Below, in pieces: positions 60,142 through 61,021 of a stretch of DNA of 64,000 nucleotides; within the stretch, counting starts at the first letter, position 1; each line of letters opens with the position of its first letter. Origin of the DNA: Escherichia coli (GTDB lineage Bacteria; Pseudomonadota; Gammaproteobacteria; Enterobacterales; Enterobacteriaceae); the NCBI RefSeq assembly GCF_016026235.1, contig NZ_CP065613.1; one strand, 5' to 3'. The notes beneath the pieces were generated by a model. It was not told the DNA's origin, made no database searches, and worked only from the letters and a program-made list of their open reading frames with translations. The translations under genes and the position numbers were made by a program.

Positions 60142-60214
60142 ATATCTGTAATAAGAAATAGCCCTCGCCGCTTCCCTCTACAGGAATGGCGAAGGGCTGT
60201 CGGTTTCGACATGG
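60142..60214 (+). ncRNA. sdhX: sucD 3'UTR, i.e. the 5' portion of the SdhX (RybD) sRNA locus, separated from its terminator by IS1
   Basis: Position directly after the sucD stop; the intrinsic terminator that would normally end this UTR lies at 60994-61017 beyond the IS1 insertion; the sRNA identity is from memory of K-12 and not verified. Confidence 0.4.
60206..60214. repeat. IS1 target-site duplication, left copy (tcgacatgg)
   Basis: Perfect 9-bp direct repeat flanking IS1; other copy at 60983-60991. Confidence 0.9.
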
Positions 60215-60269
60215 GGTAATGCTGCCAACTTACTGATTTAGTGTATGATGGTGATTTTAAGGTGCTTGC

Positions 60270-60545
60270 GTGGCTTCCATTTCCATCAGATGTCCTTCCT
60301 GCTCCGCTACTGAAGGCGTGGTGCGTAACGGCAAAAGCACTGCCGGACATCAGCGCTATCTCTGCTCTCATTGCCGTAAAACATGGCAACTACAGTTCAC
60401 TTACACCGCCTCTCAGCCCGGTACGCACCAGAAAATCATTGATATGGCCATGAATGGCGTCGGATGTCGCGCCAGTGCACGCATTATGGGCGTTGGCCTC
60501 AACACGGTTTTACGTCACTTAAAAAACTCAGGCCGCAGTCGGTAA
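60270..60545 (+). CDS. insA: IS1 protein InsA (transposition inhibitor / N-terminal part of transposase), 91 aa, GTG start
   Basis: [40 protein letters not shown]... zinc-finger and HTH; differs at several residues from the canonical IS1 InsA as I recall it. Confidence 0.93.
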
Positions 60546-60967
60546 CCTCGCGCATACAACCGGGCAGTGATGTGATTGTCTGCGCTGAAATGGACGAACA
60601 GTGGGGCTACGTCGGTGCTAAATCACGTCAGCGCTGGCTGTTTTACGCGTATGACAGGATACGGAGGACGGTTGTGGCGCACGTCTTCGGTGAACGCACT
60701 CTGGCCACACTGGAGCGTCTTCTGAGCCTGCTGTCGGCCTTTGAGGTCGTGGTATGGATGACGGATGGCTGGCCGCTGTATGAATCACGCCTGAAGGGAA
60801 AGCTGCACGTTATCAGCAAGCGTTACACTCAGCGCATTGAGCGACATAATCTGAATCTGAGACAACATCTGGCAAGGCTGGGACGGAAGTCACTGTCGTT
60901 CTCAAAATCGGTGGAGCTGCATGACAAGGTCATCGGGCATTATCTGAACATAAAACACTATCAGTAA
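60464..60967 (+). CDS. insB: IS1 insB frame (expressed as InsAB' transposase after -1 frameshift)
   Basis: ORF in the -1 frame relative to insA containing the conserved IS1 transposase sequence ...[39 protein letters not shown]... Confidence 0.9.
60521..60527 (+). promoter_or_regulatory. Programmed -1 ribosomal frameshift site (A6C) of IS1
   Basis: ttAAAAAACtc near the end of insA, in the insA/insB overlap. Confidence 0.8.
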
Positions 60968-60982
60968 GTTGGAGTCATTACC

Positions 60983-60991
60983 TCGACATGG
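60983..60991. repeat. IS1 target-site duplication, right copy (tcgacatgg)
   Basis: Identical to 60206-60214. Confidence 0.9.
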
Positions 60992-60993
60992 TT

Positions 60994-61018
60994 GGCCATC
61001 GTATGATGGCCTTTTTTG
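60994..61018 (+). terminator. Intrinsic terminator (original sucD / SdhX terminator, now downstream of IS1)
   Basis: ggccatc-gtat-gatggcc hairpin followed by TTTTTT. Confidence 0.8.
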
Positions 61019-61021
61019 TGC

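Follow-up and report, generated by a model that had tools for sequence, protein, structure and literature searches.

An IS1 Insertion within the Seed Region of the Small RNA Gene sdhX in Escherichia coli

The sucD-mngR interval and its IS1 element

The window considered here is a 64-kb stretch of DNA that carries a single copy of IS1 and is otherwise colinear with E. coli. Within this window, the sdhCDAB-sucABCD operon ends with sucD (59272-60141, plus strand; TAA stop codon at 60139-60141), which was taken from the open reading frame list and encodes a protein identical to SucD of K-12, as is also the case for SucC; neither protein is therefore informative on lineage. In K-12 MG1655 (RefSeq), the 101 nt located 3′ of sucD are annotated as the noncoding RNA sdhX, mngR starts 2 nt later, and no insertion sequence is annotated between sucD and mngR. 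This annotation bears out the original prediction, in which the sucD 3′ untranslated region (3′UTR) together with its terminator was equated with SdhX in K-12, uninterrupted up to mngR.

In the analyzed window, sdhX begins directly 3′ of the sucD stop codon at 60142, at the end of sdhCDAB-sucABCD as in K-12, and it is carried on the plus strand in two pieces. The 5′ fragment (60142-60214) corresponds to sdhX nt 1-73 by identity to K-12 b4764 and lacks a terminator; it contains a stem-loop identified by fold prediction (60160-60198), the katG-pairing arm (nt 29-42, including C34; 60170-60183) and residue G62, required for fdoG (60203), both placed according to the published positions (PMC6393394), and an RNase E-like motif, GG/UUU, detected by motif scanning at nt 61-65 (60202-60206). 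The 3′ fragment (60992-61019) corresponds to sdhX nt 74-101 and comprises two uridines, the terminator hairpin (60994-61011), and the U-run, encoded by a T6 run at 61012-61017. The convergent neighbor mngR (61022-61744, minus strand) is undisturbed, with its stop codon lying 4 nt past the T-run.

The two fragments are separated by a complete IS1 of exactly 768 bp (60215-60982), which is oriented from its left inverted repeat (IRL) to its right inverted repeat (IRR) in the same direction as sucD. The insertion point is found 73 nt past the sucD stop codon and upstream of the terminator hairpin, and when all coordinates were re-checked on the sequence, the element, its flanking repeats, and its position proved to be as originally proposed. 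The inverted repeats are 23 bp long and imperfect, with 20 of the 23 positions identical between IRL (60215-60237) and IRR (60960-60982). Between them, on the plus strand, lie a sequence resembling the promoter pIRL (60222-60249), an intact insA (60270-60545), the A6C frameshift site (AAAAAAC, 60521-60527), and the insB′ frame, which is open to a stop codon at 60965-60967. The InsAB′ protein of 232 aa, reconstructed by a −1 frameshift, matched the NCBIfam model of the IS1 family transposase (NF033558, transpos_IS1) with 245 bits (E = 6e-73) against a cut-off of 100 bits.

The exact InsAB′ protein is also present in public databases, where it is annotated as an IS1 family transposase. At the nucleotide level, copies in at least seven other E. 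coli genomes match the element without a mismatch and differ from it in the length of an A-run only; this is a widespread E. coli variant that is annotated merely as "IS1 family transposase". Compared with IS1A and IS1B of K-12, it shares the length of 768 bp, the inverted repeats, insA, the A6C site, insB′, and the 9-bp duplication, but its identity of about 91% to both marks it as another isoform than the K-12 copies that have been studied most. As far as the sequence tells, all requirements for transposition are intact in this copy.

The element is flanked by direct repeats of the 9-mer TCGACATGG at 60206-60214 and 60983-60991, identical at nine of nine positions, an agreement expected by chance at fixed positions with p ~4e-6. 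When the flanks were aligned to K-12, the left flank ended at 765122 and the right flank started at 765114, giving a 9-bp overlap (765114-765122), as expected from target-site duplication. The deletion of 60215-60991 in silico restored a junction that is 100% identical to E. coli FDAARGOS_943 over 302 nt and 99.7% identical to many further genomes. Additionally, the restored sdhX, in which 60142-60214 is joined to 60992-61019, is identical to the annotated K-12 gene (b4764, 765050-765150) at 101 of 101 positions, and identity to sdhX over its full length is obtained only after the removal of IS1 and one repeat copy. With a duplication of the 9 bp typical of IS1 and a site that is uninterrupted in relatives, the arrangement is best read as the product of a genuine and recent transposition.

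Division of SdhX and pairing with its targets

RNase E releases SdhX from the operon mRNA as a long form (about 101 nt) and a short form (about 38 nt), the latter referred to as SdhX2 (PMC6393394; reviewed in PMC9438474). Its conserved seed, UUCGACAUGGU, is located immediately 5′ of the terminator (Miyakoshi et al. 2019, PMC6393394). SdhX2 by itself is sufficient for the repression of ackA; in E. coli, the repression of fdoG additionally requires G62 at the SdhX2 processing site, and a 14-bp duplex with katG involves the region around C34 (PMC6393394).

The 11-nt seed (nt 64-74; PMC6393394) is divided by the insertion, since IS1 separates sdhX nt 73 from nt 74, and a copy of nt 65-73 is now present on either side. 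The left copy of the duplicated 9-mer (60206-60214) thus corresponds to the seed core within the upstream piece, and the right copy (60983-60991) restores the seed core beside the terminator. The upstream piece retains the katG arm, G62, the RNase E-like site, and seed nt 64-73; it stays joined to sucD and lacks the terminator and the U-tail, through which the transcript is ended and Hfq is bound. The downstream piece consists of seed nt 65-74, the terminator, and the U-tail, preceded by IS1 sequence, so that it reads CAUUACC at the end of IS1 followed by UCGACAUGGUU, the hairpin, and U6. In total, 35 of the approximately 38 nt of the minimal SdhX2 form are kept in this piece (60983-60991 and 60992-61019), and an RNA of 38 nt ending at the old terminator would be a chimera with the sequence ACCUCGACAUGG...UUUUUU.

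The original prediction stated that the insertion separates a seed-terminator module from sucABCD. The separation is real, but the element does not merely lie upstream of this module; it lies inside the seed, between nt 73 and 74. A single uninterrupted RNA of 101 or 38 nt, with the seed directly 5′ of the terminator, is no longer encoded at the sucD 3′ end, and the locus is for this reason best described as an interrupted sdhX allele. Compared with SdhX (RybD) of K-12 (b4764) and Salmonella, the locus, the seed, the terminator, the katG arm, and G62 are the same; unlike in K-12, no short RNA would carry both the processing site and the 3′ end bound by Hfq. A scan of the locus against Rfam gave no match, and intact K-12 sdhX gave none either, as Rfam contains no SdhX model.

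The 3′ fragment is displaced 777 bp downstream (IS1 plus one extra copy of nt 65-73) and now directly follows the insB′ stop codon, with the hairpin beginning within 27 nt of that codon. The terminator therefore lies 877 nt past the sucD stop codon, compared with about 100 nt before the insertion. On the plus strand between sucD and mngR, the only site resembling an intrinsic terminator is at 60994-61017, and none was detected inside IS1 on this strand, so that any transcript crossing IS1 meets the old sdhX terminator as its first intrinsic terminator. Regarding processing, the motif scan placed the native GG/UUU site upstream of IS1 only and found no RN/WUU motif at the IRR junction; the nearest motif, at 60937, would correspond to a species of 79 nt. 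An unusual point of the arrangement is that the target duplication has copied the seed core, with the result that a near-complete minimal small RNA module ends the transposase mRNA.

Pairing with the targets was computed with K-12 target sequences and with the single-stranded seed segments only; the window does not extend to the ackA, fdoG, and katG genes of the source strain. Duplex prediction with whole small RNAs was rejected, given that it opened the terminator hairpin. For ackA, the predicted energy is −17.7 kcal/mol for the chimera and −16.3 kcal/mol for the wild type. The duplicated 9-mer together with one further base is exactly complementary to the ackA start region, CCAUGUCGAG; the stronger pairing of the chimera stems from the terminal C of IS1, which turns a G-U wobble into a C-G pair and yields 10 contiguous pairs. 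Complementarity to K-12 ackA is kept in both seed copies. For fdoG, the wild type pairs at −16.7 kcal/mol with the published site around position −13 (AAUGUCGAAAC), whereas the chimera does not pair with that site and reaches −11.5 kcal/mol elsewhere. The region forming the katG duplex (nt 29-42) remains upstream of IS1. In transcripts ending at 61017, the predicted seed accessibility of the chimera, 0.44-0.51, resembles that of the wild type, 0.32-0.60.

Transcription through IS1 and predicted effects on SdhX

The effects on SdhX production and on 3′ end formation of the suc operon are those that we infer from this arrangement and from published work on K-12 and Salmonella. The canonical species of 101 and 38 nt would no longer be formed. 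Transcripts of the suc operon would enter IS1, and most of them would end or decay there without a stable Hfq-binding 3′ end, so that the repression of ackA, fdoG, and katG coupled to the tricarboxylic acid (TCA) cycle would be lost or strongly weakened. More specifically, the repression of fdoG and katG would be lost, and that of ackA would be lost or strongly weakened and would not be cleanly coupled to the operon any more. Any RNA still ending at the old terminator would be a chimera with IS1 right-end sequence 5′ of the seed, for which an uninterrupted run of 10 Watson-Crick pairs is predicted with the ackA start region and no pairing with the fdoG or katG sites. The level of this chimera would be set by read-through from the operon and by the weak, InsA-repressed pIRL instead of by direct 3′ processing of the operon mRNA. 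On balance, it appears somewhat probable that canonical SdhX is lost in this allele and that at most a chimeric remnant acting on ackA alone is produced by transcription through IS1.

Published work in Salmonella bears on these expectations. [quoted passage not shown]

The extent of the loss depends on how much transcription traverses IS1, and the loss need not be complete, since such transcription can occur. Host transcription from upstream is known to enter IS1 and to raise insAB′ transcript levels (PMC12428005). Because the upstream unit here is the strong suc operon, deprived of its terminator, a substantial amount of read-through could reach the former sdhX terminator. An extended chimeric RNA might still be active on ackA, as overexpressed RNA represses ackA without the need for processing to SdhX2 (Miyakoshi et al., PMC6393394).

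These considerations underlie the main rival reading, in which the insertion is nearly silent for ackA: read-through followed by nuclease trimming would yield a short, Hfq-bound chimera whose level tracks TCA-cycle expression, and the loss would be confined to the E. coli-specific fdoG and katG arms. Such an outcome is conceivable, with perhaps a minor share of the probability, and is favored by the entry of host transcription into an element that has no intrinsic terminator, by the 35 nt of SdhX2 that are kept, by a predicted pairing with ackA at least as strong as that of the wild type, and by the dispensability of processing for ackA under overexpression. The missing RN/WUU motif at the IRR junction, with the 79-nt species as the nearest substitute, speaks against it. 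IS1 insertions are strongly polar in classical genetics, which also argues against efficient read-through; a scan of C/G composition across the mostly untranslated insB′ did not point to a strong Rho-loading region and hence lent no support to strong Rho termination there, leaving classical genetics as the basis for assuming polarity. Two further points weigh against this reading. Only about 1.6% of ribosomes shift into insB′ (PMC12903888), and a stretch of about 420 nt is therefore almost untranslated, a condition that favors Rho-dependent termination and decay. In addition, very little expression is measured at the end of a native IS1, with lacZ placed just after insAB′ of a chromosomal copy yielding about 1.1 Miller units, compared with 18.5 in the absence of InsA (PMC12903888).

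A different reading concerns the source of the RNA. In this case, the seed-terminator module would serve as the 3′UTR of the transposase mRNA and would be driven by pIRL (60222-60249) or by a site within insB′ (60822-60850), such that an Hfq-binding RNA directed at ackA would report IS1 transcription rather than that of the TCA cycle, and the transposase mRNA may itself be subject to Hfq. The placement of the hairpin within 27 nt of the insB′ stop codon (60965-60967), with no other terminator available, and the retention of ackA pairing are in line with this proposal. Both sites are promoter-like matches on the plus strand, at 9 of 12 positions each; three such matches were found, compared with 1.2 ± 1.1 in shuffled sequence, which is weak evidence for promoter activity. 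Furthermore, pIRL is weak and repressed up to 16.8-fold by InsA (PMC12903888), and the arrangement, represented by one sequence only, bears no sign of selection. Such a rewiring is accordingly considered quite unlikely.

A related and slightly less doubtful, though still unlikely, proposition is that the transposase mRNA carries, by way of the duplication, a functional mini-SdhX composed of the seed core and the Hfq-binding terminator. If this were true, ackA would be repressed by the RNA whereas fdoG and katG would not, the amount of RNA would depend on how much transcription passes through the mobile element, with read-through from the TCA operon as one source, and Hfq would be recruited to a transposase message, providing a natural case in which a 3′UTR-derived small RNA module is given a new parental transcript by transposition. 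The appropriate comparison would be with other Hfq-dependent small RNAs processed by RNase E from 3′UTRs, such as CpxQ, SroC, NarS, and MalH. Unlike in those systems, the parental mRNA would here be a transposase message resulting from an accidental insertion.

Occurrence in other genomes and significance of the allele

A 141-nt probe consisting of the end of sucD and the restored sdhX was found to be contiguous in 5,425 of the 5,426 complete RefSeq E. coli genomes, and even the poorest of these matches covers 99% of the probe. The search for the same junction in other strains, suggested along with the original prediction, returned no complete genome with the insertion: the IS1-sdhX junction is absent from all 5,426. 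The 31-mers spanning the junctions of IS1 with sdhX are GTCGGTTTCGACATGGGGTAATGCTGCCAAC and GGAGTCATTACCTCGACATGGTTGGCCATCG, and the 31-nt junction pattern, in either orientation of IS1, is likewise absent from the GTDB representative genomes and the JGI metagenomes. Exact-protein matches to MngR (65,128 blocks) and MngA (1,132) revealed no other carrier in collections that contain no Shigella, and the exact InsAB′ protein occurs at 10 other insertion sites, none of them in sdhX. As the 64 kb hold one insertion sequence only and otherwise follow E. coli, a typical Shigella genome, rich in such elements, seems an unlikely source. The closest relatives among complete genomes are 99.5-99.7% identical over 24 kb. 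The nearest of them to be found, strain 873.10, shows an empty site and agrees with the window at 3018 of 3018 positions of the right flank.

The site is uninterrupted in the other genomes and empty in 873.10, and the insertion is on these grounds to be regarded as derived and phylogenetically young. Absence of the junction from all of these collections would also fit a misassembly, a subpopulation variant, or a product of laboratory passage, but this explanation is highly improbable, given that a misassembly would not produce a perfect, IS1-typical 9-bp duplication that closes exactly to the wild type and that the element is complete with two clean junctions.

Purifying selection was considered as an explanation for the rarity of interrupted sdhX and rejected, because only about 1.3 insertions are expected in a 101-bp target; this expectation is based on about 64,000 chromosomal IS1 places in genomes of about 5 Mb and holds even with all insertions taken as independent. 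A literature search found no report of an insertion sequence in sdhX. IS1 and SdhX are both known, and the insertional disruption of a regulatory RNA gene is a known kind of event; the allele itself was not found in the collections searched. It represents a rare, naturally occurring mutation of a well-studied regulator and not a new kind of system.

The interest of the allele derives from the regulator that it affects. SdhX is a textbook case of a metabolic operon that signals to another pathway, from the TCA cycle to acetate kinase, through a small RNA released from the 3′ end of the operon transcript. An allele in which the seed is naturally split offers a ready strain for asking what the loss of the coupling between the TCA cycle and acetate kinase costs outside the laboratory, whether the suc operon mRNA depends on its own terminator, and whether the seed-terminator module is functional behind another gene. 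It also carries a warning for annotation, as procedures based on similarity would overlook sdhX here or else annotate a fragment of it. The practical weight is limited to that of a single insertion in a single sequence.

Four strains carry an IS1 downstream of sucD in the same orientation as here, namely JX21CE8, 23CRST027, 23CRST031, and AHB10. They differ from the present case in that sdhX is contiguous, the element is of the IS1A/IS1B isoform, and the downstream gene content has also changed. In JX21CE8, sdhX is intact and IS1A lies about 80 nt beyond it, starting 181 nt from the sucD stop codon. The geometry of the matches in 23CRST027 and 23CRST031, known from match positions, is nearly identical, and in AHB10 an annotated IS1B transposase gene lies about 540 nt past the sucD stop codon.

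IS1 copies and the frameshift site

The same IS1 variant as the 768-bp window copy is present in other E. coli genomes, at 2446-3214 in each of the loci L024 and L025 and at 2446-3212 in each of the loci L026 to L033. Across these ten copies, the indel relative to the window copy is confined to the A-run of the frameshift site at which the transposase frames insA and insB' are joined, an indel that was placed directly in L024, L026, and L033 only and deduced from copy length in the others. The window IS1 carries the canonical A6 at this site. L026 and L033 have A5, and L024 has A7, a run length that joins insA and insB' into one continuous frame. 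A-run aside, five copies (L026, L027, L030, L032, and L033) are free of differences from the window IS1, with a single mismatch in each of L028 and L031 and six in L029. The A-run differences may represent either real variants that change activity or homopolymer errors of long-read assemblies.

Within insB', a sigma-70-like match on the plus strand (60822-60850; GTTACA, 17-nt spacer, CATAAT) is oriented, as a consensus match only, toward the orphaned seed-terminator module of sdhX downstream of IS1, and three such matches occur in the region against 1.2 expected from shuffled sequence. Independent IS1A/IS1B insertions lie 3' of an intact sdhX in E. coli JX21CE8 (L001:1543-2490) and AHB10 (L002), accompanied by altered downstream gene content: JX21CE8 carries a LysR-family fragment together with IS903B, and AHB10 has cydA where mngRAB would otherwise stand.

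Similarity to strain 873.10 on the two sides of IS1

To the left of IS1 (58057-60214), 30 mismatches to the closest relative found, E. coli O18ac:H14 strain 873.10, are scattered across sucC and sucD (98.6% identity), all of them synonymous, with SucC and SucD proteins identical to those of K-12 and no mismatch within the sucD 3'UTR. To the right (60983-64000), mismatches number 0 in 3018 bp. This pattern probably reflects ordinary recombination mosaicism.

About 196 bp of the sucB-sucC spacer (57861-58056) are missing from 873.10; this extra stretch contains an Rfam-called naRNA4, a REP-type repeat (57947-58017), and a second naRNA4 match lies on the minus strand in the sdhB-sucA spacer (53503-53573).

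Missing blocks and further repeats

Relative to K-12, the window lacks the ybfP-ybfG-potE-speF-speFL block (K-12 715.4-721.05 kb), leaving kdpE almost directly after pgm at a junction (25690-25702) that carries no IS. Also missing are the rhsC element and H-repeat genes (K-12 729.4-738.96 kb; junction 34038-34048), with ybgA directly following ybfA, as in 873.10.

Seven clustered tRNA genes on the minus strand (6693-7393) are taken, from K-12 synteny rather than anticodons, to be glnX-glnV-metU-glnW-glnU-leuW-metT, the cluster that on the same synteny presumably has asnB and the nag genes downstream of it. Two ES036 (CssrF) repeat matches are located at 9719-9761 and 36073-36115.
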